Shown: positions 1,766 through 31,143, counted from the stretch's first letter. The stretch is DNA of 64,000 bases from Clostridiales bacterium (GCA_021202655.1 JAJQCO010000231.1:25-64024); one strand, 5' to 3'. Notes: generated from the letters alone by a model not told the origin. Numbers and translations: made by a program.

Positions 1766-1911
1766 GCAATATTTTGTTAAAAATTGGGGAATACTATGTC
1801 CTTTATTCGGGTCCGACGGTTCTGTCCTGCTGTGTACAACATCTTCTGTTCATCAAAACCGTCCGAATTCGTCTTAAGAGGAAAAGAATTTATAAAAAGG
1901 GGAATTGCTTT

Positions 1912-2715
1912 ATGGGAGAAGTATTCGAAACCTACATGAATGACCTCGGATTATCGCAGAATACGATCCGGGCCTATCTCTACTCGGAAAAACAGTTTAA
2001 AGACCGTTACCGAACCGTCAACCGCAAGAATCTGCGGGATTACAAGGTTTTTCTGATCGACAACTATCAGCCGCAGACCGTCAATCTGCGAATTCGCGGG
2101 ATCAACTGCTATCTGGAAAGCCAGAACATGGAGAAATGGAAGCTTAGCGCTGTCAAATTTCAGCAGAAGCCCTTTCTGGAAAATATCATCAGTGAAGCGG
2201 ACTATCTCTATTTTAAGAACTGCCTGAAGCGGGACGGAGAAACTCTCTGGTATTTCGTGGTCCGTTTCATGGGCGCAACCGGAGCCCGCGTGAGCGAACT
2301 GATCCGGATCAAGGTGGAGCATGTACAAAAAGGATATTTTGACCTTTATTCCAAGGGCGGCAAGCTGCGCCGCATCTACTTCCCCGCCGCTCTCCGCCGG
2401 GAGGCGCTGGAATGGTTCCAGGAAACCGGCCTTACGAGCGGTTTTATCTTCTTAAACCGGAAGGGAAAGCAGATCACCGAGCGAGGGATCTCAAACCGCC
2501 TGAAATATTTTGGAGAAAAGTACGGCCTGGATCCGTCTGTCGTTTACCCGCACTCGTTCCGGCACCGCTTTGCCAAAAGCTTTCTGGAGCGCTACAATGA
2601 TATCGCGATGCTCGCGGACCTGATGGGTCATGAGAGTATTGAGACGACGCGCATTTATCTGAGGAAAACCAGCACCGAGCAGCAGGCTCTGATCGATAAG
2701 ATTGTGGACTGGTGA
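1912..2715 (+). CDS. tyrosine recombinase / integrase family protein (XerC/D-like, short ~267 aa form)
   Basis: The ORF track starts at a TTG at 1774. The ATG at 1912 follows AAAAGGGGA. It has an N-terminal SAM-like core-binding region (LSQNTIRAYLY) and catalytic-domain motifs GARVSEL, HSFRHRFA and GHESIETTRIY (R..HxxR..Y). Confidence 0.85.
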   Translation: MGEVFETYMNDLGLSQNTIRAYLYSEKQFKDRYRTVNRKNLRDYKVFLIDNYQPQTVNLRIRGINCYLESQNMEKWKLSAVKFQQKPFLENIISEADYLYFKNCLKRDGETLWYFVVRFMGATGARVSELIRIKVEHVQKGYFDLYSKGGKLRRIYFPAALRREALEWFQETGLTSGFIFLNRKGKQITERGISNRLKYFGEKYGLDPSVVYPHSFRHRFAKSFLERYNDIAMLADLMGHESIETTRIYLRKTSTEQQALIDKIVDW

Positions 2716-7272: not shown

Positions 7273-7287
7273 CTTATCGCCTCCCGA

Positions 7288-8316: not shown

Positions 8317-8418
8317 CCTATTTCCAATCCTTTCTGATTTTTTCCTCGGCTGTCGCTCTCCCCGCAGCTTTCACTCCGGAAAGCCCCTGTCAGCCTGTGT
8401 ATGATATGGCAGAACATG

Positions 8419-15596: not shown

Positions 15597-16586
15597 TCAG
15601 AACGATACCTTCTTGCCTCTGGTATCATCCTGTGCGATATTTTTCTCAACGTCGACAATATAGATCGGGCGATCCTTGAGCTCCGAGAAGAGGATCGCGA
15701 TATACTCTCCGATGATGCCCACGATGACAAAGAGGATGGCAAACATAAAGCAATTCAATATCACAATCGTCGCGTATCCACTGGGCGCGCCCTGCCGCGT
15801 GCAGAGCGTATAGACCATCACCGCCACACCCAGAAGCGCCGCAAAGATTCCGGCAAACATTCCGAGCTTTAAGGGCAGATTGGAAAAGCAAAGGATCGTG
15901 TGGACGGAAAACAGAAACAGCTTACGGATGCTGTATTTGCTGTGTCCCGCCACCCGGTCATGCGCTTCATATTCGATCGTCGTCTTCCGAAAGCCGAGAT
16001 TCTGCACATACCCGCGCAGAAAACGCACCTTCTCCCGGTAATTTTTCCGCAGCACCTTGGCCGCCTTCGCCGAGATCGCGAAAAAGTCAGATGCATTCGG
16101 TTCGAATCTCACATCAGAGAGAACATTGATCAGCGCGTAAAAACCCGCTGAGGTGATGTTTTTGACCAGCCCCGCCGAAGGATTCTTCGTCCGCACCATA
16201 CTGATCACGCCATAGCCCTCGCCCAGCCGCTTGACAATCTCCGGCAGACATTCCGGCGGATGCTGCAGATCGGCGTCCATACAGACAATCCCGTCTCCCG
16301 TCGCATAGTCAATCCCGGCAATCATGGCCGCCTCGTGGCCGAAATTGCGCGAAAAGCCAAGCACCCTCACCTTCGGATTTTTTTCCGCAAACCCCGCCAG
16401 GATCTCCATACTGCCGTCCGTGCTGCCGTCATTGACAAACAAAAGCTCATAATCCCAGTCTCCGGACGGGGAGCCGTCCCCCGTTCGCGCAAGTCCCTCC
16501 AGAACCGGCACGGTCTTCTCATAAAAGAGCGGCAGTGCCTGCTCCTCATTGTACACAGACACCACCACGGAAAGCAATCTGCTCAT
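15597..16586 (-). CDS. GT2 polyprenyl-phosphate glycosyltransferase (GtrB/CsbB/DPM1-like)
   Basis: LSVVVSVYNEE, VNDGSTDGS and DADLQHPP motifs, plus two C-terminal transmembrane helices. This is the typical architecture of Und-P-sugar synthases. Confidence 0.8.
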   Translation of the reverse strand: MSRLLSVVVSVYNEEQALPLFYEKTVPVLEGLARTGDGSPSGDWDYELLFVNDGSTDGSMEILAGFAEKNPKVRVLGFSRNFGHEAAMIAGIDYATGDGIVCMDADLQHPPECLPEIVKRLGEGYGVISMVRTKNPSAGLVKNITSAGFYALINVLSDVRFEPNASDFFAISAKAAKVLRKNYREKVRFLRGYVQNLGFRKTTIEYEAHDRVAGHSKYSIRKLFLFSVHTILCFSNLPLKLGMFAGIFAALLGVAVMVYTLCTRQGAPSGYATIVILNCFMFAILFVIVGIIGEYIAILFSELKDRPIYIVDVEKNIAQDDTRGKKVSF

Positions 16587-17398
16587 GTTCCTTCTTTTAC
16601 CTCAATCTCAATCGTCGAATGCGACGGTATCCGCTTCTCCTCCGGCGGCAACGTCATGTAGTCTCCGTAAATCCAGGTCAGCACATCATGCCAGTAGCCG
16701 GATGCCATCAGCCTCGTGTCGCAGAATTTCAGATCAATGATCTCATCGCACCACTTTTTCTGCAGGGTCACATAGAGATAATCCGGCTGATAATTGCTGT
16801 AATATCGCAGCGGGCGTTTCCCCTTTTTATCCTTGACCGCCGTCATACGCTGCAGGCCAAACAGCGTCTTCATCGGAATCCGGCGTACGATGAGTGACAT
16901 TCCGCCGACCGCAAGCTTATGAAACGGACTGTATTTCGAAAAATCCAGACGATAGCGGTGTCCCATCGACAGACCATAAATGATCTTATGCAAAAGCAGC
17001 GTCCACTGCGCCGCGAGCTTCGACGTCGGCAGCTCGTCAATCGTAAACAGATCGACCCAGAGATGATTCAGCTTCCCGCCGTAATAACGCATCTCCTCCG
17101 AGTCCTCATGCGCCGTAAAGTCATAGAACGCCTTTCCTCCATGATAATCCCACGGCATCACCAGCTCCATCGTATCCGGCAGCTCGCGCCTGACTACTTT
17201 TAAAAAGGCGTCATAATCTTCCCTGACAAACGCGACATCCGCGTCGTCATCCCAGGGAATAAAGCCCTGATGACGCACTGCCCCGAGAAGCGTCCCCGCA
17301 TCCAGCATATAGCGGATCCCATGCTTTCTGCAGATGCGGTCGATCTCCTTTAAAATTTTCAGGTTCGCCTCATGAACCCTTGTCAGGTCATACTCCAT
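16583..17398 (-). CDS. licD: LicD family phosphotransferase
   Basis: LKEIDRICRKHGIRYMLDAGTLLGAVRHQGFIPWDDDADVAF, the LicD nucleotidyltransferase-fold signature. 4-nt stop/start overlap with the next gene. Confidence 0.85.
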   Translation of the reverse strand: MEYDLTRVHEANLKILKEIDRICRKHGIRYMLDAGTLLGAVRHQGFIPWDDDADVAFVREDYDAFLKVVRRELPDTMELVMPWDYHGGKAFYDFTAHEDSEEMRYYGGKLNHLWVDLFTIDELPTSKLAAQWTLLLHKIIYGLSMGHRYRLDFSKYSPFHKLAVGGMSLIVRRIPMKTLFGLQRMTAVKDKKGKRPLRYYSNYQPDYLYVTLQKKWCDEIIDLKFCDTRLMASGYWHDVLTWIYGDYMTLPPEEKRIPSHSTIEIEVKEGT

Positions 17399-17442
17399 AC
17401 CGTTTCCTTTCGCTTTCCAAAAAAGACGCCGCCTGCCTCTCC

Positions 17443-18789
17443 TTACCCGGCCTGCCCTTTCGCCGCCTCCCGGATCGTCCTCGCCATATAATCAATCATC
17501 TCGTCCGTCATTCCCGGATAGACGCCGACCCAGAAGGTATCCTTCATGATCCGGTCCGTCACATCCAGGCCGCCGACAATGCGGTAGCCCTCGCCGCCTG
17601 CCCTCAGCTCGTCAAAGCAGGGATGCTTCGTCAGGTTTCCGGCAAAGAGCATCCTCGTCTGGATTCCCTTTCCCTCGATATCGCGCACCATCGCCTGACG
17701 GTCCGTGCCGTCCTTACAGGTAAGCAAAAAACCAAACCAGCTCGGCTTTGCATGCTTGCAGGCCTCCGGCAGAATGAGCAGGTCCTCCATTCCCGAAAGC
17801 CCCTCACGCAGCCGCTCAAAATTATGCCTCCTGCGCTCTGTAAAGGACGGGAGCTTGTCAAGCTGCGCGCAGCCGATCGCCGCCTGTAGATCAGTCGCTT
17901 TCAGATTGTATCCGAAATGAGAATATACATACTTATGATCATACCCCACCGGCAGCTCCCCGTACTGGCGGTCAAAGCGATGTCCGCACAGATTGTCTCT
18001 CCCGGACGGACAGACGCAGTCGCGGCCCCAGTCGCGCATCGAGCGCACAATCTTATGCAAAAGGGGATTGTCCGTGTATACCGCGCCGCCCTCTCCCATT
18101 GTCATGTGATGCGGCGGATAAAAGCTCGACGTACCGATGTCGCCAAATGTGCCGGTGAAGCGCTCCACGCCGTCCATCTGATAACGGCTTCCCAGGGCGT
18201 CACAGTTGTCCTCCACCAGCCAGAGCTCATGACGGTCACAGAATGCCTTCACCGCGGCCAGATCAAAGGGATTCCCGAGCGTATGGGCCAGCATCACTGC
18301 TTTCGTCCGCTCCGTGTATGCTTCCTCCAGCTTCGACACATCAATGTTGTACTGCGGAATCGTCACATCCACAAAGACCGGCACTGCGCCGTAATTGAGG
18401 ATCGGCGTCACCGTCGTCGGAAAGCCCGCCGCCACCGTAATCACCTCGTCGCCGCGGTAGATTCGCCGCTTCCCCAGAAGCGGGGAGGTGAGCGCCATAA
18501 ACGCGCACAGGTTTGCCGAGGAGCCGGAATTCACCAGCGAGCAGAAACGCACGCCCAGATATTCTGCCAGCTTTTGCTCAAATTCATCCGTATAGCGCCC
18601 GGAGGTCAGCCAGAATTCCAGCGCGCTGTCCACCAGATTCACCATCTCCGCCGCGTCATAGACACGGGAGGCGTAGGGAATCCGGTCGCCCTCCTCGTAT
18701 GGCTTTCTGTTTTTGATATGATAAGTCTCGCAGTAATCCGCTACCAGATCCAGGATCTCCTGGCGCGCCTGCTCCTGTGATTTCTCCAT
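17443..18789 (-). CDS. rfbH: CDP-6-deoxy-D-xylo-4-hexulose 3-dehydrase type enzyme (DegT/RfbH family, E1-like)
   Basis: DegT-fold aminotransferase-like protein. His replaces the PLP-binding Lys (SFYPPHHMTMGEGG), and a Cys cluster DCVCPSGRDNLCGH is present, both as in E1 dehydrases. The start MEKSQEQ at 18789 avoids overlap with rfbG. Confidence 0.8.
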   Translation of the reverse strand: MEKSQEQARQEILDLVADYCETYHIKNRKPYEEGDRIPYASRVYDAAEMVNLVDSALEFWLTSGRYTDEFEQKLAEYLGVRFCSLVNSGSSANLCAFMALTSPLLGKRRIYRGDEVITVAAGFPTTVTPILNYGAVPVFVDVTIPQYNIDVSKLEEAYTERTKAVMLAHTLGNPFDLAAVKAFCDRHELWLVEDNCDALGSRYQMDGVERFTGTFGDIGTSSFYPPHHMTMGEGGAVYTDNPLLHKIVRSMRDWGRDCVCPSGRDNLCGHRFDRQYGELPVGYDHKYVYSHFGYNLKATDLQAAIGCAQLDKLPSFTERRRHNFERLREGLSGMEDLLILPEACKHAKPSWFGFLLTCKDGTDRQAMVRDIEGKGIQTRMLFAGNLTKHPCFDELRAGGEGYRIVGGLDVTDRIMKDTFWVGVYPGMTDEMIDYMARTIREAAKGQAG

Positions 18790-18796
18790 TCCGATT

Positions 18797-19882
18797 TCAC
18801 TCCTTTTGTTTCCCGTATTCGAGGATCTGGGCATCCATGACCCGGTTTGCGTCCTCGCCGTCCAGCCAGGCTCGCGACCACTCCACCGTGAGCGCCAGGG
18901 CTTCGCGGATGTGAAGCTTTGGCTGCCAGCCGAATACATGTCGGATCCGCGAGCAGTCCAGCTTCAGGAAATTCGCCTCATGAGGCCCCCCGTCGTGCCG
19001 GTTTATCCACGACGCCCTTGTCCCTGCGCCCTCGTTCCACAGATCGCAGAACATCGTAACCAGATCTCCCGTCGTCACACAATCAACATCATCCGGCCCC
19101 ACATTATAATATCCCTGGCAGGCTCCGTCTTCATATTGTCTCTGGGCGATCATCAGGTACGCAAACAGCGGTTCCAGCACATGCTGGAACGGTCTGGTCG
19201 AATAAGGGTTGCGCACCACGATCTCCCGGCCTGCCGCCACCGCACGGACACAGTCCGGAATAATCCGGTCATTTGCGAAATCGCCGCCGCCGATCACATT
19301 GCCGGCCCGCGCAGTCGACACCGCGCAGCGCCCATCCTCAAAAAAGGACTTCCGATAGCAGTGCGTCACAAGCTCCGAGCACGATTTACTGTTTGAATAC
19401 GGATCGTATCCGTCGAGCGGATCACATTCCCGATAACCGTATTCCCACTCCCGGTTTTCATATACCTTGTCCGTGGTCACGTTCAGGAAGGAGCGGACCG
19501 AATCGGTCTGCCGCACACATTCCAGCACATGCACCGTGCCCATGACATTTGTCTCATAGGTAAGCACCGGATCCTTATAGGAATCCCTCACAATCGGCTG
19601 CGCCGCCAGATGAAACACAAGCTCGGGGCGCGTCTTCTCAAAAATCCGTTTCAATCCTGACAAATCCCGCACATCTCCGGTGACCGATTCCATCTCATCC
19701 GCAATCTGCGCGATCCGAAACAGGGACGGATCCGTCGGCGAGTCGAGCGCATAGCCGGTCACCCTGGCGCCCGCAAGCGTCAGGATCCGGCAAAGCCAGC
19801 TTCCCTTAAACCCCGTATGTCCCGTCACCAGGACGCGTTTTCCTTCATAGAAAGCCCTGCATGTCTCCAGATTATACATCAT
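18797..19882 (-). CDS. rfbG: CDP-glucose 4,6-dehydratase
   Basis: VTGHTGFKGSWL N-terminus and YSNSKSC (YxxxK), ~360 aa, immediately downstream of rfbF. Confidence 0.88.
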   Translation of the reverse strand: MMYNLETCRAFYEGKRVLVTGHTGFKGSWLCRILTLAGARVTGYALDSPTDPSLFRIAQIADEMESVTGDVRDLSGLKRIFEKTRPELVFHLAAQPIVRDSYKDPVLTYETNVMGTVHVLECVRQTDSVRSFLNVTTDKVYENREWEYGYRECDPLDGYDPYSNSKSCSELVTHCYRKSFFEDGRCAVSTARAGNVIGGGDFANDRIIPDCVRAVAAGREIVVRNPYSTRPFQHVLEPLFAYLMIAQRQYEDGACQGYYNVGPDDVDCVTTGDLVTMFCDLWNEGAGTRASWINRHDGGPHEANFLKLDCSRIRHVFGWQPKLHIREALALTVEWSRAWLDGEDANRVMDAQILEYGKQKE

Positions 19883-20656
19883 CTAACTCCAAATCTTCCA
19901 TGGAGCGTGCCCGGACTGCCACAGCTCCTCCAGTTTTTTCATCTCTCTCTGTGTATCCATACACTGCCAGAATCCGTCATGATAAAAGGACATCAGCTGT
20001 CCCTCTTCGGCCAGGCGCTGCATCGGCCCCTGCTCAAACACGGTCGTATCATCCTCCAGATAATCAAAGATCTCCGGATTCATCACCATGAATCCGCCAT
20101 TGATCAGGGCGCCGTCCCGGTCTGCCTTTTCCCGGAAGGAGTGGACTACGTGATCCTCTCCGATGTCCAGAACGCCCTTCTGCTGCCCGATATTGACCGT
20201 CGTGATGGTGGCTGCCCTCCCGTGAGCCGCATGAAACCGCGCCAGCGCGTGAAGATTCACGGTACAGACGCCGTCCCCGTAGGTCAGCATAAACGGCTCG
20301 TCGCCGATATACGGCTGAATCCGTTTCACCCGTCCGCCGGTCATGGTGTTCACGCCGGTATCAACCAGCGTCACCCGCCACGGCTCCGTACTGTTCTTGT
20401 GAACCTCCATCCGATTGTTTGCCAGGTCAAACGTCACGTCTGACATATGGAGAAAATAATCGGCAAAAAATTCCTTCACCACATATTGTTTATAGCCCAG
20501 ACAGATCACAAACTCGTGAAAGCCGAACTCTGAGTAATATTTCATGATATGCCAGAGGATCGGTCTGCCGCCGATCTCAATCATCGGCTTCGGCATCAGA
20601 TGACTCATCTCGCTGATCCTCGTCCCCAGGCCGCCCGCCAGGATCACTACCTTCAT
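19883..20656 (-). CDS. rfbF: glucose-1-phosphate cytidylyltransferase
   Basis: MKVVILAGGLGTRISE..KPMIEIGGRPILWHIMK..YFLHMSDVTFD..NRMEVH, collinear with my recollection of Salmonella RfbF over the whole length. 257 aa. Confidence 0.92.
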   Translation of the reverse strand: MKVVILAGGLGTRISEMSHLMPKPMIEIGGRPILWHIMKYYSEFGFHEFVICLGYKQYVVKEFFADYFLHMSDVTFDLANNRMEVHKNSTEPWRVTLVDTGVNTMTGGRVKRIQPYIGDEPFMLTYGDGVCTVNLHALARFHAAHGRAATITTVNIGQQKGVLDIGEDHVVHSFREKADRDGALINGGFMVMNPEIFDYLEDDTTVFEQGPMQRLAEEGQLMSFYHDGFWQCMDTQREMKKLEELWQSGHAPWKIWS

Positions 20657-20737
20657 GCTTCATCCTTTCCCGGATGTCCGTCCATCCGTCCGCCGTCCGG
20701 ATTTTTCATCCGTCCGCGCGCCACTCCCCGTCTGCGC

Positions 20738-22618
20738 TCAGTCTGCCTGCATGGTCAGAAGAACCGCCAGATTCGTATCTCCGCGCACCTCCAGCGCATT
20801 CGGCACGTAAAAGTTCGTCTCAAACCGGAGCGTTACCGGTTCATAGGGATCCACCTGGATCGAAAGTCCCATGGTATTCTCCGTAAAGTGAATGTACTCA
20901 TATGGCTCGTCATTCAGATAGACCGTCAGCCACTGGTCCTCCTGTAAATCTCTCGGATAGGTAAACGCCAGATTGATGGTTCCCGTGCTTCCCGCCATCA
21001 CCTGGACCGACGATTTCTCATCCAGCCATCCGTCGTCGTAATATCCGTAAAGCGGACGACATTTGAACAGCTTCACCGTGTGCGTCACATCCTGAAAACG
21101 GTTATTCTCCGGATCCTCCTGGATCACCAGCATCTGATCCGTATCAATCAGGCCGATATCCCGGATATCGTCGATGTGAACCACCTTCGTGCTGTCCTCG
21201 CGTTTCAGCCGGTCAAACACCTTGAAAAAATTCTGCTCTGTAAACTCTTCCATCTCAAAATCATGACCGATGACAAAAATCGTTTTCCCGAAAATCCCGA
21301 CGCCGTACTGGCCGAAGGTTTCCTCTGCCAGCGAATTGTAGCGTTCCTGCTCCGCCCAATAATACAGGTTCGGATAAAGCCCCCGGTAATACTGCTCCAC
21401 CGGCAGCATGAAGACGACATAAAGCGTGAACATGGCAAGAAAGGGAATCGCCTTCACATAATTGCCCTTCTCCATCGTCCCTTCCGTCAGCACGCCGTAC
21501 ATCCATGAGAGGAACAGAAGCGCCGCCGCATAAGAGACGTAAATCCACCGCATCTCCACCCGGATCGTCACGCTGGAGCACACAATACAGGCTCCGATGA
21601 ACATGACAAAGAGCGTCGCCGTCTTCAGATGCAGAATCCGGTTCCGGCGAACGCGGATCTGCCGTGCAAGAAAGGTGATGACAAACAGGATCAGCATCAG
21701 ATCGGCAAAGACAATCAGGATCGTTACCCACATGGGCGCCTCGCGCCAGTTCTGCCCGTTCAGGTGCTCCGGACCGGCATTGACGCCAAACAGATAGGCC
21801 ACCTGGCTGAGCACGAACTTGATCACGCCGGACACAGAAACCGTGTCAGCCACATTTGTCCCGCCGGTCCCAGCCGGCGATACGCTTCCGATTACCAGGA
21901 AACGGATCAGCTGCACCGCGCCAAAGCTGGCGACGGACGCGATCCAGAGCCTGATATCCCTGCACCTGCGAAACAGAAGCACCACGAAAAACAGCGGCAA
22001 TAACACCATATAACGCTCGTGGACAAAACAGACCGCCAAGTACAGACCCAGGGCAGGTAAAAACCGCTTTTCCCCCTGCCCGTCCACGTCGTTCAGATAT
22101 TCGTACAGCAGATACAAAATCATGATCGCCAGCCACAGCGCCATGGACTCCATCAGCCCCAGCGCCTGACCGATCTGATAATAGGCCATCCGCGACATCA
22201 GATAGGCCAGCCCGCATCCCACGCCCATATACGGCGAGCGGCTGAAGCGGTGCGACATCCAATAAATGGTATAGGCAATCAGTGTGTTGAGCAGAATATT
22301 AAACGGGACATACCAGTTTACATTGGGTCCGAACACGGCCATCTCCAGATACGCCGCCAGATTATAAAGGAACCGGCATCTTGTCCCGCCGAAGGTAAAG
22401 ATCGCCTGTAGGAAACCGACCGAATGAAAGCTGTACCACTGGTACAGATCGTCCATGTAGAGTCCTTCCATCTTCATGTCCCGGTTGACAAAGCATGCAA
22501 AAGCCGCCAGCAGTCCCAGCACCAGAAGCTCCGTCCGCCACTGCAGCGCATGCCGAAACCAGCTGTAGCCGAGGGATTCTCCCTGTGTTTTTCCTGTCCG
22601 ATCCAACTGTTTTTCCAT
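20738..22618 (-). CDS. polytopic membrane protein with a C-terminal extracytoplasmic domain, GT-C-like glycosyltransferase candidate
   Basis: About 13-14 hydrophobic segments over the first ~430 aa. An acidic YMDDLY motif follows the first transmembrane segment, as in GT-C enzymes. A ~200-aa soluble C-terminus is present. The ATG at 22618 follows GGGAGA. Confidence 0.55.
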   Translation of the reverse strand: MEKQLDRTGKTQGESLGYSWFRHALQWRTELLVLGLLAAFACFVNRDMKMEGLYMDDLYQWYSFHSVGFLQAIFTFGGTRCRFLYNLAAYLEMAVFGPNVNWYVPFNILLNTLIAYTIYWMSHRFSRSPYMGVGCGLAYLMSRMAYYQIGQALGLMESMALWLAIMILYLLYEYLNDVDGQGEKRFLPALGLYLAVCFVHERYMVLLPLFFVVLLFRRCRDIRLWIASVASFGAVQLIRFLVIGSVSPAGTGGTNVADTVSVSGVIKFVLSQVAYLFGVNAGPEHLNGQNWREAPMWVTILIVFADLMLILFVITFLARQIRVRRNRILHLKTATLFVMFIGACIVCSSVTIRVEMRWIYVSYAAALLFLSWMYGVLTEGTMEKGNYVKAIPFLAMFTLYVVFMLPVEQYYRGLYPNLYYWAEQERYNSLAEETFGQYGVGIFGKTIFVIGHDFEMEEFTEQNFFKVFDRLKREDSTKVVHIDDIRDIGLIDTDQMLVIQEDPENNRFQDVTHTVKLFKCRPLYGYYDDGWLDEKSSVQVMAGSTGTINLAFTYPRDLQEDQWLTVYLNDEPYEYIHFTENTMGLSIQVDPYEPVTLRFETNFYVPNALEVRGDTNLAVLLTMQAD

Positions 22619-22767
22619 CTCGTAACAATCTCCCTGCATTCGAACTGACTTTGCGAACCTTCCCGGCATCCTCATCTGCCGGACTTTTTCTGACTCTCCC
22701 CATATGCGCGGTATGCGCCCCTGTAAAAAAACATCAGCAGCTTCACGATCGGCTTCGGACAGATCTT

Positions 22768-23478
22768 TTAATACATCGCCGTCTCATCCGCAGCTGTCGT
22801 GTGATCCTGAATACAGGCCTTTGTCGTCGGCCCCTCATGAATCCGGTGATACAAAAGCGGCCTCTCCGCGCAGACAAAACGCCCCGGCCTCCCCGCCAGC
22901 TTCCATAAGGTGTCCCAGTCCAGCGCAAAGGAAAACGGCGAATCAAACAGCGGTTCCCCCAGCGCATCCTTATCGTAGGTGCAGGACGGGCAGATCACCG
23001 GATTGCCAAAGAGAAGCGCCGCGCGCTTTACGCATGTCCGGTCTGACAGCCGTCTAAGCCTTAACGGCAGGCGAAGCAGCCGTTTCACAAGATGGACAAG
23101 CCCCTGTCTCTGAATCCGGTTCTCCTTTATGATGACACAGTCGGTCGAAAAGACGGTCGTATCCGGATTCCTCCGCCAGCATTCCCGCACCGCCCTCGCA
23201 TAATCCCTGTGATAGCAGTCATCCTGATGCGCGATCGTCACCAGACCGTCCCCTGCCTTCTGATACGCAAAATTCCAGTCGTTCTGGATTCCTCCCGGCC
23301 CTTTTCGGACAAACAGCGGAAGCGCATAAGACTTTGCCAGCGCCTCAATATAAGGACTCGGCGTGGAAGTGCAGAGTATAATCCTCGACGGGACGGACTG
23401 ACGCTTTAAAGAGCGGATACACGCCTCCAGATAAGGCGAATCGCCATAAGCGCAGACTGCAAAGGTATGTTTTCTCAT
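22768..23478 (-). CDS. glycosyltransferase family 2-like protein
   Basis: The start MRKHTFAVCAYGDSPYLEACIRSLKRQ is typical of a GT-A N-terminus, and QDDCY is a DxD-like motif. Its ATG overlaps the gmhA stop (ATGA at 23476-23480). The longer track ORF would overlap gmhA. Confidence 0.7.
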   Translation of the reverse strand: MRKHTFAVCAYGDSPYLEACIRSLKRQSVPSRIILCTSTPSPYIEALAKSYALPLFVRKGPGGIQNDWNFAYQKAGDGLVTIAHQDDCYHRDYARAVRECWRRNPDTTVFSTDCVIIKENRIQRQGLVHLVKRLLRLPLRLRRLSDRTCVKRAALLFGNPVICPSCTYDKDALGEPLFDSPFSFALDWDTLWKLAGRPGRFVCAERPLLYHRIHEGPTTKACIQDHTTAADETAMY

Positions 23479-24125
23479 CAGAAAAAATGCTCCTCCAGCA
23501 TCAGACACAGCGCATGATAGATCGGCAGGTGAAACTCCTGAATCCGGTAGGTTTCTGTCTCCGGCACAATCACCGACACATCGGCGCGCTGTCCCAGCCT
23601 GCCGCCATCCTTTCCGGTCAGCGCGATGACCTTGAGCCCCTTCGCCTTTGCCATCGTCACAGCGTAATCCACATTTTTCGCATTTCCCGAGGTCGAGATG
23701 CCAAGAAAGACATCTCCCCTGGCGCCATAGCCATTCACCTGCTGCGCATAGGTCATATCCGCATTCACGTCGTTGGCAAACGCCGTGGTCAGGCATACAT
23801 GCCCGGTCACCGCGATCGCGGGGAGGCCGCATTCCAGGCCCTCCGCCAGCATCGCTCCATGCTCCGGATCCAGCTCCCTCATCGCGTCCTTCAGCTCACG
23901 CGACAGCGGATGCTTCTTCTTAAAGCTCTTCATCAGCTCGCCCACAATATGCTGTGCGTCCGCGCAGCTCCCGCCGTTTCCGGCGATCAGAAGCTTGCCG
24001 CCGTGGGAATAGCACTCTACGAGAACCTCAAACGCCATCCGGATCTGAGAGCAGATCGGCAAGAGCCGCGGATACCGCTCGATCAGTTCGTCCAGAATCG
24101 CCTGTTCCTTTTCCGATAATACCAT
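23478..24125 (-). CDS. gmhA: D-sedoheptulose-7-phosphate isomerase (SIS domain)
   Basis: LLIAGNGGSCADAQHIVGELM, GISTSGNAKN and VIALTGKDGG motifs, ~215 aa. Confidence 0.85.
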   Translation of the reverse strand: MVLSEKEQAILDELIERYPRLLPICSQIRMAFEVLVECYSHGGKLLIAGNGGSCADAQHIVGELMKSFKKKHPLSRELKDAMRELDPEHGAMLAEGLECGLPAIAVTGHVCLTTAFANDVNADMTYAQQVNGYGARGDVFLGISTSGNAKNVDYAVTMAKAKGLKVIALTGKDGGRLGQRADVSVIVPETETYRIQEFHLPIYHALCLMLEEHFF

Positions 24126-24186
24126 AAATCCTCCAGTTATCCCTGTTTCGCAAGCCCTGTCGACACGAAAAATTCAACCTGGCTTT

Positions 24187-25257
24187 TTATACCGGGAACA
24201 CATAATCCCGGTCTGGCAGATGCACCTTTACATTCCTGTAATCCCAACGGTCTTCATCCACAATCCACGTCTGCGCGCCGCGCAGCTCAAACACCCAGTC
24301 CGTCAGCTGACCGCCCAGCGCCTCGAGTCTGGCCGCCACCTTATGCTTCACATTGTACGGACAGTACACGAGCAGATATCCGCCTCCACCTGCCCCCAGC
24401 AGCTTGCCGCCCAGGGCTCCGGCCTTCATCGCCTCTTCATACAGCTCATCCACCTGCGGATTCGTGATCTTGCTGCTCATCCGCTTCTTGCTCTCCCAGC
24501 CGTAATTTAACAGACGGCCAAAGCTGTTTAAATTTCCCTTCAGCAGCTCGTCCTTCATCGCGTAGGCCAGCGCCTTCACCTCGCACATCGCCTCGAAGCT
24601 GTCTCTGACCTCATAGTTTTTCACCTGGTCCTGGATGATGTTGGCGGACACATGAACCTTGCCCGTATAACACAGCAGCAGATTGTACTGAAGCTCATGG
24701 TAAATGTCTTTTTTTATCCGCAGCGGGTTTACCACGACCTGATTGCGGCCGTGAAATTCGATAAAATTGAACCCGCCAAAGGTCGACGCGTACTGGTCCT
24801 GATAACCGCCGTCAATCTTTAAATCCTCGCGCTCTACCTGATAAGCCAGATCTGCCAGCCGGTAGGCGTCCATCTCCACGCCCTTCCAGCGCGCCATCGC
24901 GACCAGAAGCGACACCATCACCGCCGAGGAGGTCCCGAGGCCCGATCCGGGCGGTGCGTCACACTGCAAAAATACCTCGCAGCCCTGGCGGATCTTCATC
25001 TCCTTCATCGCCGCCTTCACCAGATCCAGCTTGCCGTCATAGACAAAATTTTCGTTCGTATTGTATTTGATCGTCATGTCATAGTCCAGGGAATGGACAA
25101 TGATCTGATCGTCTTCTCTCGGCACGATCGAGCAGTACGCATACTTGTTGATCGTACTTCCGATGATCGCCCCGCCCTGATTCTCACAAAACGGAGAGAC
25201 ATCTGTCCCGCCGCCGCCGAAGCTGACGCGCAGCGGCGCCCTTCCCCGAATCACCAT
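24187..25257 (-). CDS. hddA: GHMP-family sugar kinase, D-glycero-alpha-D-manno-heptose-7-phosphate kinase type
   Basis: RAPLRVSFGGGGTDVSPF N-terminus, GHMP motif PPGSGLGTSSA, and adjacency to gmhA. Confidence 0.75.
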   Translation of the reverse strand: MVIRGRAPLRVSFGGGGTDVSPFCENQGGAIIGSTINKYAYCSIVPREDDQIIVHSLDYDMTIKYNTNENFVYDGKLDLVKAAMKEMKIRQGCEVFLQCDAPPGSGLGTSSAVMVSLLVAMARWKGVEMDAYRLADLAYQVEREDLKIDGGYQDQYASTFGGFNFIEFHGRNQVVVNPLRIKKDIYHELQYNLLLCYTGKVHVSANIIQDQVKNYEVRDSFEAMCEVKALAYAMKDELLKGNLNSFGRLLNYGWESKKRMSSKITNPQVDELYEEAMKAGALGGKLLGAGGGGYLLVYCPYNVKHKVAARLEALGGQLTDWVFELRGAQTWIVDEDRWDYRNVKVHLPDRDYVFPV

Positions 25258-25380
25258 ACCATGACTCCTTTCTTTTCCTTCAAAGCCAATCAGATTTCGC
25301 CTCTTGGACTTTCTCAGTATAGCATCTTTGCACGTAAGATTCTACCATCATCATAAAAATTTAATAACTGTCCGGAATCC

Positions 25381-28300
25381 TTATGATTTCTCCTGCTCGA
25401 AGTCTTCCTCAATCATACGCCAGGCGGCGTCCATACTGAAATGCTTCCGGATATAGGTCTGCGTCTTTTCGCACAGCCTCCGGCAGGCTTCCTCATCCTG
25501 ATACAGCGCGACCACAGCCTCGGCAAACTTCTCCGGCGCATCCTCGACGATCAGGACATCCTCGACCTGCGGGATTCCCTCCGCGCCGACCGACGTGGTG
25601 ATAATCGGCGCGCCGTTGTAAATCGCCTCGACGACCTTTCCCTTCACACCGGCGCCGTAACGCAGCGGGACGACGACAATCCGGCAGCTCGCATAGAGCC
25701 CTGCAAGCTCCTCTTCTGTGACAAAGCCGCGGATGATAATCCCGTTGTCAGGCTGCTGCAGCGCCCGGATTTCGTCCGTCACCCGCGATCCCACGACAAT
25801 AAAATCCGGCGGAGTCTGTCCGGCCTGCTCAAAACGCTGCCGAATCCCGGGGTAAATCTCCTTCGCAAACCACAAAACCGCGTCGGCATTCGGCGGATGC
25901 GCGAAGCCTCCGACAAACAGAAGCCCCTCCCGCTTCGCAAAGTCTTCCTCGATGTCGTCCTTAAACTCATCGTACACATAGGCCGTGATATCCTTCACGC
26001 AGATAGTCGGGTCGATCTCGCGGATCGCGTCCCGCTCGACACAGGACGGATAATAGGAAACCGCCGCCTTGCTCATCAGCGTCAGCTCCACAGACTTCCA
26101 GTATTCCGCATCCTCCCGGATCTTCGGATCGCCGGTAATCTGATACTCGCGGCTCTCCCGCAAAAAATGCAGATCATGCCCGTAATAAATCACCTTCGTA
26201 TCCGTATTATCCAGGATATAGTCAATATATTTCGACGCAATGTGCGGCCGGTTCAGATACGCGATCGCGATATCGTCCCCGTGATTTCGCAGCCACTCCC
26301 AGATCTTCGTCTGGTATTCCGGCCCGTAAAGGACCTCAATCCCCATCTGCTCAAGCGTCGTCGTGTACGGCTCCTCATGCATGAAGTTATCCCCGAGGAA
26401 CTTCACCTGATAGCCCTTCTTTAAAAACATTTTCAGGTACTGGAAGGTCGTTTTCGATCCCGCGTCCCGGTCATACGTCGGCACATAATGATCAACCACC
26501 AGGATGATTTTCTTCCCCATACTGCGCTCACGCGCGCGGAAGGGATCCGGATTCCCGGTATTTTCACACTGAAGCTTCAGCTCCTCCGCCCACTTCTCCT
26601 TTAACTTCCTGGCGTTCACCGCCTGATAGCGTTTCATGCCCGTCCCCTGCACGTCCGTGCCGTTGGAAACGCCTTCAAAATGGACCACCTTCGAGAGCGG
26701 CTGATAGACCACCCGCAGTCCTGCCTTGCGCACCTCAAACGCCAGATCAGAATCCTCACAGTATGCCGGGGCAAAGCGCGTGTCAAAGCCGCCGATCTGC
26801 TTCCACAGATCGGTCGAAAGCAGGATCGCCGCGCCGGAAATATAATCTACGTCCTTCACATAATTATATTCCGGCTTGTCCGGATCATCCAGACGTCCGT
26901 AATTCCAGCCGGATCCGTCGCTCCAGATGATGCCGCCCGCTTCCTGCAGGCGTCCGTCCGGATAGACCAGCTTTGACCCCACCATACCGATCGTCGGATC
27001 TGACTCGATCAGACGAACGAGGGAGCTAAGCCAGCCCTCCGTCACCTGCGTGTCATTGTTCAGAAACATGATATAACGGCCCTTCGCGTGCCGCGCCGCG
27101 CTGTTACAGTTGCGAAGGAAGCCCTGGTTTGTGCTGTTGCGGCAGATCACAAGCCCTTCCGCGAAATCCGCCAGACGCTCCGTCGCATCCGTCGACACAT
27201 CATCCGCAATGATAATCTCATAGGAAACATCCGTCGTATGCTGCAAAATGGAAAGCAGACAGGCATAGGTGTATGAGATCTGATTGTAAACCGGAATGAT
27301 AATGGAAACTGTCGGATCCTCCACATGCTCAAAATGCAGCTTCCCGTGTTCCTTATAAATATCTCCGATATGAAAATCGCCGTCCCGCAGGTTCTTCCCC
27401 TCCGGCGTCCCGTAGAGCCGCCTCGACCGAATCGGATGAAGCAGATATTCCTTGCGGTATTGCAGCTTCTTTCGCTGCATCGAGCCGCGCGGATATTTCT
27501 CGTTAAACTTATCTCCCAGCCTGCGCCGGCACTTTGACAGGATCGCCTCATGGCTGTTTAAATACGTCAGGGTCTTTCCCATCTCGTCAATCTCATGGCG
27601 CAGATCCCGGATGATCGTCTCCAGGTTCGTCACGTGATTGTTTGTCAGGCGCTGAATCTCCGTGATCTTGCGGATCTCCACATCCTTCTCCCGACTGTGG
27701 ATTTTCATCTGCTCGATCCGCTCGCGCGCACGCGAAAGATCGCTCTCCGTCTGACGAATCTCCCGGATTCCGCGCGAATAAACCATGTAATTGCCCAGAT
27801 AGAGCTGCCGGTTTTCCCCATGAACATAATTCTGGAAGCTCTCCTCCATCTTCTGATACACGTCCGCCATCTCCGGCGAAATATCAAACGCATCGAGGAT
27901 CGTCTCCAGGGCCGTCCGCCCCATCACACTGGAATACTGCTCATAAAAATAATACAGGATGCGATATTTGACAAAATGCTCCGGCACCGGGAAAAGGAAT
28001 ACCCATTCATAATCCAGGCAATAGATTCCCTTCTCCGTCAGGATCATATTTTCAAACAGCGCGTCAATATTGGAAACCTCGCAGGCCGTGTCCCGGTCCA
28101 GCACGGCAAGCTCCTCTTCGGAAAGCCCCGCCCCGAACACCTCCAGAAACGCATCCGTCCGCGAAAAAGCGCTCCGGCAACGCTCGTCGATGTCATAAAT
28201 CTGATTCATCGCCGAGGCGAGCGCATCAAGCGGCATCCGACCGCCCTCAATCTGCGCCCCCAGCCGCTCCGCCATCGTCTCTCCGATGAGATACGGGAAA

Positions 28301-29445
28301 AATGCCGAATTCCGGTCGTCCCGGTACATCGGCAACGCCGCCCGAAGCGTCCGGTGCTGCCTTGTCAGCTTCTCATACTTATCCCGGAACGAATCAATAT
28401 GGGCGCAGCCGTCCAGGCTGAGCGCCGCCTTCTCCACATAACGCATCCACGTCATCCGGGCATTCACCGATGACCCGGTCTCCGTATCGCCTGCGCGGAT
28501 GAGCGCCTCCTGCGCCAGCCCGATATCTTCTGCCGCCTCCGCTTCCCGCACATACTGCTCCGGCATCATACGCTCACAGATACAGGTCTTGATCTGGAAC
28601 TCCTCGCGCCGGGTCTTGTTGTACTTGATATAAATCCGCCTGTCGTTTCCGTAAACCTGCCTGCCGTCCCTGCTCCAGAATACCAGATAGGAATTCGCAT
28701 ACTGGTCGAAAAGCTCCGCCTCGCAGACCGCGTCAAACTTCTCGCCCATGTCCATCATGTGATACGGCGGATAGTCATAGGCAGGCGTTACCCTCGTCAG
28801 GTCGCCCTTCTTTGGCAGATAATAATCCGAATAGATACTGGTCGGCGTCCGGTAATCCGGCATCGGATAATAGAACCGCATGCGCATCTGGCCGGACTCT
28901 TTTTCCTCAAGAAGCCTCGACAGCTGCTTTTTCGTGAAGGAATGCTCTTCCTCACGGCTTCCGGCAAAATACTTCATGCCAAGGGTATTCGCCGCCGCCA
29001 GAATCAGCACGCCGCTGTCCTTTAAAAGCGCCTTCGCCGCCTCAATATTTTCCCGGTACGGCGCCTCTAACGTCCCCGCAAGGACCACGTAATCGTAAGT
29101 CTTTCCGTTGACCCGGCTCAGATATTCCGGCAGGCTGCCCTTCTCATAGCGGATGTTGGCCGCCCCCGGATTGCGCATCTGCACCGTGAGAAGGGCGCTC
29201 TCCTCCTCATCCAGCACCGTCACCTGCTTCACGCTGGTCCGGAAGAGACCGGTCATCGCCCCATAATCCGCCCCCACCTGAAGGAGCTCTCCCTCCGGAT
29301 TAAAATCATACCATTCCAGCAAAAGCTCCCTCTGTTCCGAGAGGGCGTAGAGGACATCCAGCCGGGTGTTCCCCGCCAGGATTTCCCTGATGTCGCCATG
29401 ATGCTCCTTTAAGAGCGCCTGTATCTCATCGTCAATTCTTCGCAT
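25381..29445 (-). CDS. 1354-aa multidomain glycopolymer synthase: SAM-methyltransferase + kinase-like region + coiled coil + GT2 + GT4-like
   Basis: aa ~40-165 are class I methyltransferase-like (LLQVGADYG motif I, VLILAA). aa ~455-485 read NIDALFENMIL..CLDYEW (a D-x4-N ... D pattern as in APH/choline-kinase folds). aa ~556-650 are heptad-rich (RERIEQMKIHSREKDVEIRKITEIQRL..LETIIRDLRHEIDEM). aa ~712-925 are GT2 (VSIIIPVYNQ, IADDVSTD, CEDSDL). aa ~976-1354 are GT1/GT4-like (GFVTEEELAGLY..PLRYGAGVKGKVVEA). Confidence 0.8.
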   Translation of the reverse strand: MRRIDDEIQALLKEHHGDIREILAGNTRLDVLYALSEQRELLLEWYDFNPEGELLQVGADYGAMTGLFRTSVKQVTVLDEEESALLTVQMRNPGAANIRYEKGSLPEYLSRVNGKTYDYVVLAGTLEAPYRENIEAAKALLKDSGVLILAAANTLGMKYFAGSREEEHSFTKKQLSRLLEEKESGQMRMRFYYPMPDYRTPTSIYSDYYLPKKGDLTRVTPAYDYPPYHMMDMGEKFDAVCEAELFDQYANSYLVFWSRDGRQVYGNDRRIYIKYNKTRREEFQIKTCICERMMPEQYVREAEAAEDIGLAQEALIRAGDTETGSSVNARMTWMRYVEKAALSLDGCAHIDSFRDKYEKLTRQHRTLRAALPMYRDDRNSAFFPYLIGETMAERLGAQIEGGRMPLDALASAMNQIYDIDERCRSAFSRTDAFLEVFGAGLSEEELAVLDRDTACEVSNIDALFENMILTEKGIYCLDYEWVFLFPVPEHFVKYRILYYFYEQYSSVMGRTALETILDAFDISPEMADVYQKMEESFQNYVHGENRQLYLGNYMVYSRGIREIRQTESDLSRARERIEQMKIHSREKDVEIRKITEIQRLTNNHVTNLETIIRDLRHEIDEMGKTLTYLNSHEAILSKCRRRLGDKFNEKYPRGSMQRKKLQYRKEYLLHPIRSRRLYGTPEGKNLRDGDFHIGDIYKEHGKLHFEHVEDPTVSIIIPVYNQISYTYACLLSILQHTTDVSYEIIIADDVSTDATERLADFAEGLVICRNSTNQGFLRNCNSAARHAKGRYIMFLNNDTQVTEGWLSSLVRLIESDPTIGMVGSKLVYPDGRLQEAGGIIWSDGSGWNYGRLDDPDKPEYNYVKDVDYISGAAILLSTDLWKQIGGFDTRFAPAYCEDSDLAFEVRKAGLRVVYQPLSKVVHFEGVSNGTDVQGTGMKRYQAVNARKLKEKWAEELKLQCENTGNPDPFRARERSMGKKIILVVDHYVPTYDRDAGSKTTFQYLKMFLKKGYQVKFLGDNFMHEEPYTTTLEQMGIEVLYGPEYQTKIWEWLRNHGDDIAIAYLNRPHIASKYIDYILDNTDTKVIYYGHDLHFLRESREYQITGDPKIREDAEYWKSVELTLMSKAAVSYYPSCVERDAIREIDPTICVKDITAYVYDEFKDDIEEDFAKREGLLFVGGFAHPPNADAVLWFAKEIYPGIRQRFEQAGQTPPDFIVVGSRVTDEIRALQQPDNGIIIRGFVTEEELAGLYASCRIVVVPLRYGAGVKGKVVEAIYNGAPIITTSVGAEGIPQVEDVLIVEDAPEKFAEAVVALYQDEEACRRLCEKTQTYIRKHFSMDAAWRMIEEDFEQEKS

Positions 29446-30760
29446 CTTCGCTGTCCTTCCTCGTCACCCGGACTTCGGATTCCATGTCATATACCCCCAC
29501 GGTATTCTTATTCGAAATCACCGTAATATTCGCCACATCATACAGGCGATGATACACCGTGTGCTCTCCCTGCTCAAACCCCGTGCAGCTCATGGAAAGC
29601 AGATATTCTCCGCCCTGCAGCGTCATCTTCTGGCGGAAATCCACCTCATATTCATCGCCCTTTTTCACCGGACGGACGTCTGCTCCCTCGAACATCGTAT
29701 TCGTCCCGCTTAAATCCGTCCCCTTCTTATCCTTGATCGTATAGGTAAAAATCGGCGCTTCAATCGTATCCAGAAAGCGGATTTTCTCCCGTATCACAAA
29801 ATATTCGCCCTTGAGCAGCAGATTTGTCAGATTCCCTCTCTCGTCAAACAATCCCATGTCATAGATTTCCGCCTTGCCATTTCCGTACTCCGTCCGGCTC
29901 GGATTGATCGTAATATGCTCCTTCATCAGGCCGCCATGGGAGGACACGTGCTTCGGCTCCATCATTCCGCCGGAAAAATCGTTCATCTCCTGAAGCTCCT
30001 CCTCCAGATCCTCCATCTGGTTTGCCAGGATCTTCTTATACAGATCAACCATCTTCCCCGGCGCGCCCTCGGCGATAAAGTTCCCCTTGTTTAACAGAAT
30101 CACCCGGTCGCAATACTTGATCACGCTCCCCATATCGTGCGTCACCATCAGAATCGTCGTCCCGTTCCTCCGGATCTCCTCCATCCGCCGATAGCACTTT
30201 GACTGAAAGAACACATCGCCCACCGAAAGCGCCTCATCCACGATCAGAATCTCCGGATCTACGTTGATCGCCAGCGCAAAGGCCAGCCGCACAAACATTC
30301 CGCTCGAATACGTCTTCACCGGCTGATTCACGAAGTCCCCGATATCCGCAAACTCCAGAATATCCGGCAGCTTCTCATCCATCTGCTTCCGGGAAAAGCC
30401 CATCATCGTCCCGTTCATATAGACATTCTCAATGCCCGTGTAATCCATATTAAATCCCGCGCCCAGCTCCAGAAGCGCCGAGATTACCCCCGTCACCCGC
30501 ACGCTCCCGCTCGTCGGCGTCAGGACGCCCGTGATGATCTTTAAGATCGTCGATTTGCCCGAACCGTTCGTCCCGATAATCCCCACCGTCTCGCCCTTCC
30601 TCACCTGGAAGCTGATGTCGTTCAACGCAAAAAAATCTCTGTGATAATTCTTGTGCGTCACGCTCAGCGACTCCTTCAGGCGGTCGATGGGCTTCTCATA
30701 TAATTTGTATATCTTGCTGACATCCTCTACCTGGATGGCATACTCCGTATCCTCTGACAT
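29432..30760 (-). CDS. polysaccharide/teichoic-acid export ABC transporter ATP-binding protein with a C-terminal carbohydrate-binding-type domain (Wzt/TagH-like)
   Basis: Walker A GTNGSGKST, signature YSSGM, Walker B ILIVDEA. A ~180-aa beta-rich C-terminal extension (GKAEIYDMGLFDERG..) resembles Wzt C-domains. The ATG at 30760 follows AAGGAG. 14-nt overlap with the downstream giant gene. Confidence 0.85.
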   Translation of the reverse strand: MSEDTEYAIQVEDVSKIYKLYEKPIDRLKESLSVTHKNYHRDFFALNDISFQVRKGETVGIIGTNGSGKSTILKIITGVLTPTSGSVRVTGVISALLELGAGFNMDYTGIENVYMNGTMMGFSRKQMDEKLPDILEFADIGDFVNQPVKTYSSGMFVRLAFALAINVDPEILIVDEALSVGDVFFQSKCYRRMEEIRRNGTTILMVTHDMGSVIKYCDRVILLNKGNFIAEGAPGKMVDLYKKILANQMEDLEEELQEMNDFSGGMMEPKHVSSHGGLMKEHITINPSRTEYGNGKAEIYDMGLFDERGNLTNLLLKGEYFVIREKIRFLDTIEAPIFTYTIKDKKGTDLSGTNTMFEGADVRPVKKGDEYEVDFRQKMTLQGGEYLLSMSCTGFEQGEHTVYHRLYDVANITVISNKNTVGVYDMESEVRVTRKDSEDAKN

Positions 30761-30807
30761 CAAATAGCCTGCTCCTTTTTCACGCACTGTTCCATGCTGA
30801 CGTGGAG

Positions 30808-30836
30808 ATTATACCATTAAACCCCAATCGTTGCAA
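30808..30836 (-). promoter_or_regulatory. near-consensus sigma-A promoter of the glycopolymer operon
   Basis: The minus strand has TTGCAA, a 17-nt spacer and TATAAT, about 45 nt upstream of the wzt-like ATG. Confidence 0.7.
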
Positions 30837-30923
30837 GGGAAAGAGGGGCGGCCAGGCCGCTCCTTCCTGCATCAAAGGGACAGCAAACCTGGTCTTTACA
30901 GGAAAAGATTACAAAAACCTTTC

Positions 30924-30952
30924 TTGCAAAAAAGTTGAATCAAGAGTATACT
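30924..30952 (+). promoter_or_regulatory. orphan plus-strand sigma-A-like promoter
   Basis: TTGCAA, a 17-nt spacer and TATACT, in an AT-rich gap between two minus-strand operons. Confidence 0.5.
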
Positions 30953-30958
30953 ATTCGT

Positions 30959-31090
30959 AAGTATATAAATTAAAATCTGAAAAAGAAGGCCGCACATGAA
31001 TCTGAAGACAGTGGCAAAGACGGAAGAGGACCTGTTTTCATCATGAACGGCAAAACAGGCTCCCGAAAACATTTCGGAGGCCTGTTTTTT
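30959..31090 (+). ncRNA. candidate ~130-nt small transcript (sRNA or 16-codon sORF 30996-31046)
   Basis: Bounded by the promoter at 30924-30952 and the strong hairpin plus T-run at 31052-31090. The internal ATG at 30996 follows GAAGG and encodes MNLKTVAKTEEDLFSS. Confidence 0.3.
31052..31090. terminator. bidirectional rho-independent terminator
   Basis: 14-bp stem ACAGGCTCCCGAAA/TTTCGGAGGCCTGT with one mismatch, flanked by AAAA on the 5' side and TTTTTT on the 3' side. It ends the minus-strand tct-aldolase operon and the plus-strand small unit. Confidence 0.8.
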
Positions 31091-31143
31091 ACTTACCAAA
31101 GCATACGGAAGAAGCTGCTAGTGGCAGGTCCTGTAATTCAGAT

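Follow-up and report, generated by a model that had tools for sequence, protein, structure and literature searches.

Could a single protein of a Gram-positive bacterium build a surface polysaccharide, set its length, and cap it for export? The question is raised by a large gene in a 64,000-nucleotide (nt) stretch of DNA from a Clostridiales bacterium (GCA_021202655.1, JAJQCO010000231.1:25-64024), the whole of which is referred to here as the window. A preliminary description, made from the sequence alone, proposed that this gene encodes terminator, ruler, and polymerase on one chain, next to an ATP-binding cassette (ABC) ATPase of the Wzt type. Much of that proposal stands: the predicted domain folds, a helix with heptad repeats, the carbohydrate-binding domain (CBD) of Wzt, the constant presence of wzt beside the gene, and a conserved spacer length all speak for it. 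None of the refuting outcomes named there that computation can address came about, whether absence of a methyltransferase or kinase fold, absence of an extended coil, or a Wzt C-domain unlike a CBD. The claim of novelty is not supported, and the methyltransferase may not be canonical. Taken together, the large protein is quite probably a single-polypeptide polymerase-terminator (terminator-ruler-polymerase) that works with cap-dependent ABC-transporter export in Gram-positive Lachnospiraceae.

The gene and the parts of its product, with the evidence for each, are as follows. AF2 is AlphaFold2, with confidence as the predicted local distance difference test (pLDDT); SAM is S-adenosylmethionine, APH aminoglycoside phosphotransferase, and GT glycosyltransferase.

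25381..29445, minus strand: large gene, encoding a methyltransferase / kinase-like / coiled-coil / GT2 / GT4 protein of 1354 amino acids (open reading frame list, translation, homologues)
28801..29445, minus strand: class I SAM-methyltransferase fold, residues 1-215 (family profile against the PDB, AF2 pLDDT ~90, Foldseek, motif tallies)
27778..28752, minus strand: protein-kinase-like (APH-type) domain, residues 232-556 (AF2, Foldseek, invariant K/D/N/D columns)
27496..27768, minus strand: long helix / coiled coil, residues 560-650 (AF2 helices, heptad scan, spacer length)
27529..27747, minus strand: strongest continuous heptad register, residues 567-639 (heptad scan)
27331..27495, minus strand: basic helical linker from coil to GT2, low confidence, residues 651-705 (AF2, composition)
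26566..27330, minus strand: GT2 (GT-A) module, residues 706-960 (Pfam, PDB matches, conservation)
25381..26565, minus strand: GT4-type (GT-B) module, residues 961-1354, stop codon included (Pfam, TIGR03087)

By the open reading frame (ORF) list and its translation, the gene is one minus-strand ORF with an ATG start, which overlaps the upstream ORF (29432..30787) by exactly 14 nt, both as first described. The protein is real and conserved: its full-length homologues, at 57-88% identity, number more than 120. Hydropathy analysis gave no hydrophobic transmembrane-like segment in it, and phmmer with the full sequence against the PDB gave GT2 matches only, with the known terminators WbdD and WbbB not among them.

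Domain composition of the large protein

For the N-terminal domain, Pfam gives the 1354-residue protein alone a weak Methyltransf_23 match under cut-off (E=0.005); many of its homologues have significant methyltransferase matches. At 1.6e-10, a profile built from 27 relatives finds class I SAM methyltransferases of solved structure in the PDB, and the domain takes a methyltransferase fold by both AF2 (pLDDT ~90) and Foldseek. That it might simply carry a chance methyltransferase-like motif was considered and rejected, as the family profile and the fold speak against it. Motif I is LLQVGADYG (residues 54-62), with Asp in place of the second Gly, where stand-alone relatives mostly have EIGAGCG.

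The second domain, modeled alone by AF2 (residues 232-560), has a pLDDT of 87.5 and a predicted template-modeling score (pTM) of 0.84. Its top 50 Foldseek matches are all aminoglycoside, macrolide, or peptide-antibiotic phosphotransferases, with E from 4.8e-5; they include APH(2'')-Ib, APH(3'), and macrolide, capreomycin, and corramycin phosphotransferases, and WbdD is outside these 50. In an alignment of 34 relatives (19-43% identity), the invariant residues are K339, D461, N466, D478, E480, and W481, and also T287, P488, and R495. K339 corresponds to the beta3 Lys of protein-kinase-like enzymes, D461-x4-N466 to their catalytic D-x4-N, and D478 to their metal-binding Asp; these four are the candidate catalytic residues. 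The D-x4-N...D pattern of the preliminary description is therefore real (D461-x4-N466...D478-Y-E-W), and so, by the model and Foldseek search of the domain alone, is the kinase-like fold. For a profile of the domain against the PDB, the best matches were Vipp1, at E 0.4, and the N-lobe of JAK1, at E 0.7, neither of them significant; the JAK1 match is aligned around the candidate beta3 Lys, and is not usable as evidence.

The N-lobe of this domain also has a clade-variable insert of ~43 residues (~293-335; window 28450..28580), predicted at low confidence as two helices; it is missing in most relatives and longer in one (P0126).

An AF2 model of residues 1-700 (mean pLDDT 78, pTM 0.72) has two confidently predicted domains, a methyltransferase and a second one (~250-550), and then a long helix. 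When the two-domain N-terminal model was searched with Foldseek, the three best PDB matches were WbdD structures (4azs, 4azt, and 4ax8; E ~4e-8), aligned over ~570 columns across both domains with a root-mean-square deviation of ~18 A.

The helix is predicted as two stretches, 560-630 and 633-650. A heptad scan calibrated on shuffled sequence found a single register over residues 567-639, and nowhere else does the protein exceed the 99.9th percentile of the shuffles; at 73 residues, this stretch bears out the heptad-rich segment first described, for which ~95 residues was slightly generous. Of 130 fused homologues, 127 have a heptad segment. Measured from where the kinase ends to where GT2 starts, the spacer keeps its modal length (146 by the measure used) in 113 of 137 homologues, and the others mostly differ by -7, -3, +4, +7, or +11 residues, the pattern expected of a coiled coil under length constraint. 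That the long helix is a modeling artefact was considered and rejected on two grounds, an independent heptad statistic and the conservation of spacer length. Between coil and GT2 is a linker with pLDDT below 50 at residues 662-700; residues 641-710 contain 17 K/R against 11 D/E, and such a basic linker may have a role such as membrane contact.

The C-terminal half holds the GT2 and GT4-like domains of the preliminary description, both recovered by Pfam. The GT2 module has matches above curated cut-offs to PF00535 (residues 714-836, 6e-27) and PF13641 (4.6e-11, reaching residue 925), with chondroitin synthase and GalNAc-T among its PDB matches (phmmer). The GT4-type module matches PF13692 (residues 1174-1317, 1e-22) and, also above cut-off, PF00534, for a GT4 extent of 1174-1345; Pfam covers the C-terminal Rossmann half only, and TIGR03087 matches residues 1169-1349.

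The adjacent wzt gene and the distribution of the pair

Three features are located immediately upstream of the large gene:

29432..30760, minus strand: wzt, encoding an ABC ATPase with a C-terminal CBD (Pfam, PDB homologues)
~29483..29893, minus strand: CBD of Wzt (Pfam Wzt_C, PDB homologues)
30808..30836, minus strand: promoter-like site, TTGCAA, 17-nt spacer, and TG-extended TATAAT (consensus scan, 10/12 matches)

The product of the upstream ORF has both ABC_tran (9e-24) and Wzt_C (5.5e-41) by Pfam, in agreement with the ATPase and Wzt-like C-terminal extension first noticed. Its best solved relative is the full-length Wzt of Aquifex aeolicus (8dku, 1.4e-86, in two matched stretches). Taken alone, its last 181 residues match the CBD of the Aquifex protein (4.7e-6) and, at 3.5e-4, Wzt-C of E. 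coli O9a (2r5o), among matches that include 8dku, 8dky, 6o14, and 2r5o; the domain is homologous to solved CBDs. An assignment as a TagH teichoic-acid exporter was rejected: the NCBIfam TagH models are under their cut-offs, and Wzt_C is present.

The mechanically called ORF starts with GTG at 30787, and the ATG at 30760 is the probable start, since it is there that the alignment to Hungatella Wzt (from 30745) begins. The promoter-like site, a consensus match only, is 48 nt upstream of this ATG in the intergenic stretch (30761..31143), and a terminator-like hairpin (31062..31078) follows the unrelated aldolase gene upstream. Preceded by both of these, wzt seems to be the first gene of its own operon. 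The gene for the partner permease, wzm, is adjacent to wzt in just 32 of 80 related loci, with rmlC-wzm directly upstream in about 30. That arrangement is found in the Hungatella/Lacrimispora clade and not in the clade of the window, across which wzm appears to be unlinked from wzt.

An exhaustive search with residues 1-700 of the large protein returned 3562 representatives at E <=1e-3 and 1750 at <=1e-10. These have two formats: stand-alone proteins of ~550-800 residues, which span methyltransferase and kinase-like domain with 30-33% identity (the WbdD format), and fusions of 1100-1450 residues, the distant ones with one or two GT2 modules in place of GT2 plus GT4. Named full-length homologues are from Lachnospiraceae, for example Brotaphodocola and Hungatella. 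A third homologue search, with a profile of the kinase domain, reached only Lachnospiraceae-type proteins. The comparison below with two characterized proteins, ORF6(O7) and WsaE, is one of architecture.

A scan for the motif C[LIM]DYEWV[FAM] in species-representative genomes yielded 207 relatives, the best 80 of which were used for locus comparisons. Most of the 80 are labeled Lachnospiraceae or unclassified Clostridiales/Eubacteriales, with a few contigs of metagenome-assembled genomes labeled otherwise; Brotaphodocola, Ventrimonas, Lacrimispora, Hungatella, and Enterocloster are among the genera. Wherever there was enough flank (78 loci), a Wzt with nucleotide-binding domain (NBD) and CBD is immediately upstream (78/78).

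Within these same loci, the parts of the system change at different rates. Identity to the window protein is 77-92% for GT2 (79 loci) and 64-93% for GT4, and identity to the window's Wzt is 81-97% for the NBD and 73-92% for the CBD; the methyltransferase (37-86%) and kinase-like (38-76%) domains diverge far faster. A slowly changing CBD beside a fast-changing terminator is unexpected if cap and reader co-evolve.

The GT2-GT4 polymer backbone genes are kept across genera, and the genes downstream vary. Gram-positive rhamnose wall polysaccharides likewise have a backbone with variable decoration (PMC9574508), a layout that the present locus resembles.

Probable mechanism and its alternatives

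If the large protein is a polymerase-terminator, its membrane-proximal C-terminal GT2 and GT4 modules would extend an undecaprenyl-linked chain, whose repeat is probably two-linkage and may contain rhamnose. The coiled coil, at ~73-90 residues (roughly 11-13 nm), would space the N-terminal module from the polymerase, and only chains of a minimum length would reach that module. There the APH-type kinase domain (K339, D461, N466, D478) would phosphorylate the non-reducing end, and the neighboring methyltransferase may then methylate it, leaving a phosphate or methyl-phosphate cap at which growth would stop. The CBD of the co-translated Wzt would read the cap and Wzm/Wzt would export the chain, wzm presumably being encoded elsewhere in this clade. 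A ruler-cap-export mechanism of this kind is established for WbdD, WbbB, and ORF6(O7) (PMC3482155, PMC11231755) and is the most likely one here. For the present protein, we infer the enzyme activities, cap chemistry, sugar identity, ruler function, oligomeric state of the coil, and attachment site.

Several results weigh against such a scheme. At the level of structure, the kinase-like domain has modest TM-scores to APH enzymes (0.3-0.5 by Foldseek), and those of the two-domain model to the WbdD structures are only 0.16-0.28, so that the latter match reflects common domain order and local similarity rather than a rigid-body match; in the monomer model, the coil itself has a pLDDT of just 50-70. 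At the level of sequence, searches gave no significant link to any kinase, and neither phmmer nor the family profile against the PDB gave one to WbdD among the matches listed. At the level of the locus, wzm was not found in the 64-kb window (tblastn with Hungatella Wzm; no ABC2_membrane among the Pfam-scanned ORFs), nor were an initiating transferase or an LCP (LytR-CpsA-Psr) ligase. The methyltransferase adds three more: motif I reads QVGADYG in place of E/DxGxGxG, and 104 of 138 fused homologues carry Asp for the second Gly; in motif III the fused clade has Ser or Thr, where stand-alone relatives carry Asn or Asp; and the domain has two deletions, one of 10 and one of 18 residues, both specific to the clade. 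Given these changes, methylation may be lost or altered in this clade.

These same three changes in the methyltransferase speak for an alternative with the same architecture, in which that domain would be a pseudo-enzyme or have a changed function, and the cap read by Wzt would be a plain phosphate or other phospho-group added by the kinase-like domain. The sub-threshold Pfam match of the 1354-residue protein, and the invariance of the kinase catalytic residues, would fit with it. The domain is nevertheless confidently folded in the AF2 model and keeps G58, G62, D79 (the post-I acidic residue), D118, and N153, and the altered motif I is conserved in its own right, which points to function, not decay. 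Catechol O-methyltransferase, an active enzyme, likewise lacks the second Gly (GAYCG). On balance this alternative is rather unlikely. Less likely still, to the point of being improbable, is that the methyltransferase-kinase region decorates internal residues or some other substrate, with the helix as an oligomerization or scaffold element, no ruler, and cap-independent export. Methylation by WsaE in vitro is independent of chain length, which led to the suggestion of an extra length factor (PMC2943079), and the low identity of the methyltransferase and kinase-like domains, next to 64-97% for GT2, GT4, and Wzt, could be read in the same direction. It would however leave several things out of account: a CBD-bearing Wzt is directly upstream in all 78 loci, and the studied CBDs of this kind bind terminal caps (PMC11231755); the spacer is conserved in length, with heptad-compatible insertions and deletions; and the order, terminator distal and polymerase proximal, is as in WbbB and ORF6(O7) (PMC11231755).

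The polymerase-terminator reading might be extended to a more general one: that the pair of Wzt-CBD and terminator-polymerase marks an undescribed length-controlled, end-capped core wall polysaccharide in more than 200 species-level gut Lachnospiraceae genomes, with wzm unlinked from wzt in one large clade and a cap chemistry perhaps other than methyl-phosphate, in view of the conserved Q-x-G-x-D-x-G motif and the two deletions. As a whole, this is speculative and rather unlikely.

How chains are ended and their length controlled is well understood for Gram-negative O antigens and largely hypothetical for Gram-positive wall polysaccharides; according to a 2022 review of the rhamnose-rich ones, the terminator that has been proposed lacks experimental evidence (PMC9574508). 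The present family could help fill this gap, as an abundant and recognizable pair of terminator-ruler-polymerase and cap-reading Wzt in Lachnospiraceae common in the human gut, the cultured genera Brotaphodocola, Hungatella, and Lacrimispora among them. Its fused and stand-alone formats also make a natural series for the study of module recombination.

Surrounding genes and known systems

Downstream of the large gene, and on the same strand, is a set of genes (15597..25257) in synteny with Brotaphodocola and Hungatella loci:

24187-25257, minus strand: HddA-like heptose-7-phosphate kinase (Pfam, NCBIfam, synteny)
23478-24125, minus strand: GmhA (Pfam, NCBIfam, synteny)
22768-23484, minus strand: GT2 with an early stop (Pfam, synteny)
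20738-22675, minus strand: membrane protein with several transmembrane-like segments (hydropathy, synteny)
19883-20656, minus strand: RfbF (NCBIfam above cut-off)
18797-19882, minus strand: RfbG (NCBIfam above cut-off)
17443-18939, minus strand: RfbH (NCBIfam above cut-off)
16583-17398, minus strand: LicD (Pfam / NCBIfam)
15597-16586, minus strand: PgfS/GtrB-like GT2, a polyprenyl-phosphate glycosyltransferase (Pfam / NCBIfam)

RfbF, RfbG, and RfbH represent the steps from CDP-glucose to a 3,6-dideoxyhexose. The genes rmlA, rmlB, and rmlD are at 6352-9315; since relatives have rmlC-wzm by wzt, this gene neighborhood suggests a backbone containing rhamnose. In tblastn searches of the whole window, Hungatella RmlC found no rmlC and Brotaphodocola GmhB found no gmhB.

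The GDP-glycero-manno-heptose genes (22768..25380) have the order HddC-HddA-GmhB-GmhA-GT2 in relatives. The window keeps HddA and GmhA, with gaps too small for HddC (123 nt) or GmhB (61 nt), and the heptose set is apparently decaying here. As a candidate HddC orthologue elsewhere in the window, tblastn with Brotaphodocola HddC offered only weak matches, at 23-25% identity, with the nucleotidyltransferases of rfbF and rmlA, which were rejected. The GT2 gene after GmhA (22702..23484, minus strand) has an in-frame stop where its Brotaphodocola orthologue has Gln, and past that stop the in-frame alignment continues for 21 codons (KICPKPIVKLLMFFYRGAYRAY); the early stop reflects a recent nonsense mutation or else an error in the sequencing.

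The 645-residue protein at 20738..22675 (minus strand) has its hydrophobic, transmembrane-like segments between residues 171 and 427, followed by a soluble C-terminal part, and no Pfam or NCBIfam match. Its counterparts (611-625 residues) follow GT2 in the Brotaphodocola and Hungatella loci, and it could be an uncharacterized membrane glycosyltransferase or polymerase. Farther away are genes for a 935-residue YfhO protein (39408..42215, minus strand) and a choline-binding-repeat protein (9..1508, plus strand). Together, LicD, the PgfS/GtrB-like glycosyltransferase, and YfhO suggest extracytoplasmic polymer decoration, and the choline-binding repeats hint at phosphocholine on a wall polymer. 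Two further genes are apparently unrelated to the large one: a phage-type integrase toward the window's left end (1774..2715, plus strand), and a 400-residue ORF (58575..59777, minus strand) with a weak APH-family match (E 1e-4).

As to known systems, the preliminary description saw in this locus a poorly characterized Gram-positive variant of the terminator-ruler mechanism. This is not borne out: WsaE (PMC2943079) and ORF6(O7) (PMC11231755) precede it, and by these precedents the architecture is already known in Gram-positives and Gram-negatives. No new mechanism is revealed.

WbdD (E. coli O9a / K. pneumoniae O3; 4azs, 4ax8, 4uw0; PMC3482155) has methyltransferase, kinase, and extended coiled-coil ruler in the same order, and the Wzt CBD recognizes its methyl-phosphate cap. 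It is a stand-alone protein, however, which recruits the separate polymerase WbdA via the membrane-binding end of its coil, whereas here the coil runs into fused GT2 and GT4 modules; the present kinase-like domain also differs in that, taken alone, it resembles APH enzymes. WbbB (Klebsiella O12 / Raoultella terrigena) does have N-terminal terminator, coiled-coil ruler, and two polymerizing glycosyltransferase modules in one polypeptide (PMC11231755), but its terminator is a Kdo (3-deoxy-D-manno-octulosonate) glycosyltransferase and its cap beta-Kdo.

Among Gram-positives, WsaE of Geobacillus stearothermophilus NRS 2004/3a has been characterized experimentally: it combines a 2-O-methyltransferase at its N-terminus with two rhamnosyltransferase domains and acts on an S-layer glycan, with the 2-O-methyl cap proposed to end the chain and be read by Wzt (PMC2943079). 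By its described features it is like the present protein in its Gram-positive host, its N-terminal methyltransferase with two glycosyltransferase domains, and the overlap of its gene with wzt (locus order wzm-wzt-wsaE). It is unlike it in that no kinase or coiled-coil ruler has been described for WsaE, and in that the WsaE cap is O-methyl, not phospho-methyl.

ORF6(O7) of K. pneumoniae O7 (Kelly et al., 2024, J Biol Chem) phosphorylates and then methylates the chain end, giving a methyl-phosphate cap; a kinase-dead D441A version blocks export and leaves over-long intracellular polymer (PMC11231755). Its kinase was unannotated by sequence, with APH-type enzymes (AmiN) as nearest structures (PMC11231755). 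The likeness to the present protein is one of architecture: a chain of ~1400 residues in the order methyltransferase, APH-like kinase, coiled coil, and two glycosyltransferase modules, encoded next to wzt (ORF6(O7) adjoins wzm/wzt, here wzt only). ORF6(O7) however belongs to a Gram-negative O-antigen locus, and it has an Ig-like carbohydrate-binding module between kinase and coil, where the AF2 model here passes directly from residue 556 to the helix at 560, with no beta-rich domain in between. Orthologues of ORF6(O7) are listed from proteobacteria and cyanobacteria, and some of them end after the coil (PMC11231755), matching the stand-alone format of the present family; the glycosyltransferase modules are GT2 plus GT2 there and GT2 plus GT4 here, with GT2 plus GT2 again in distant relatives of the present protein.

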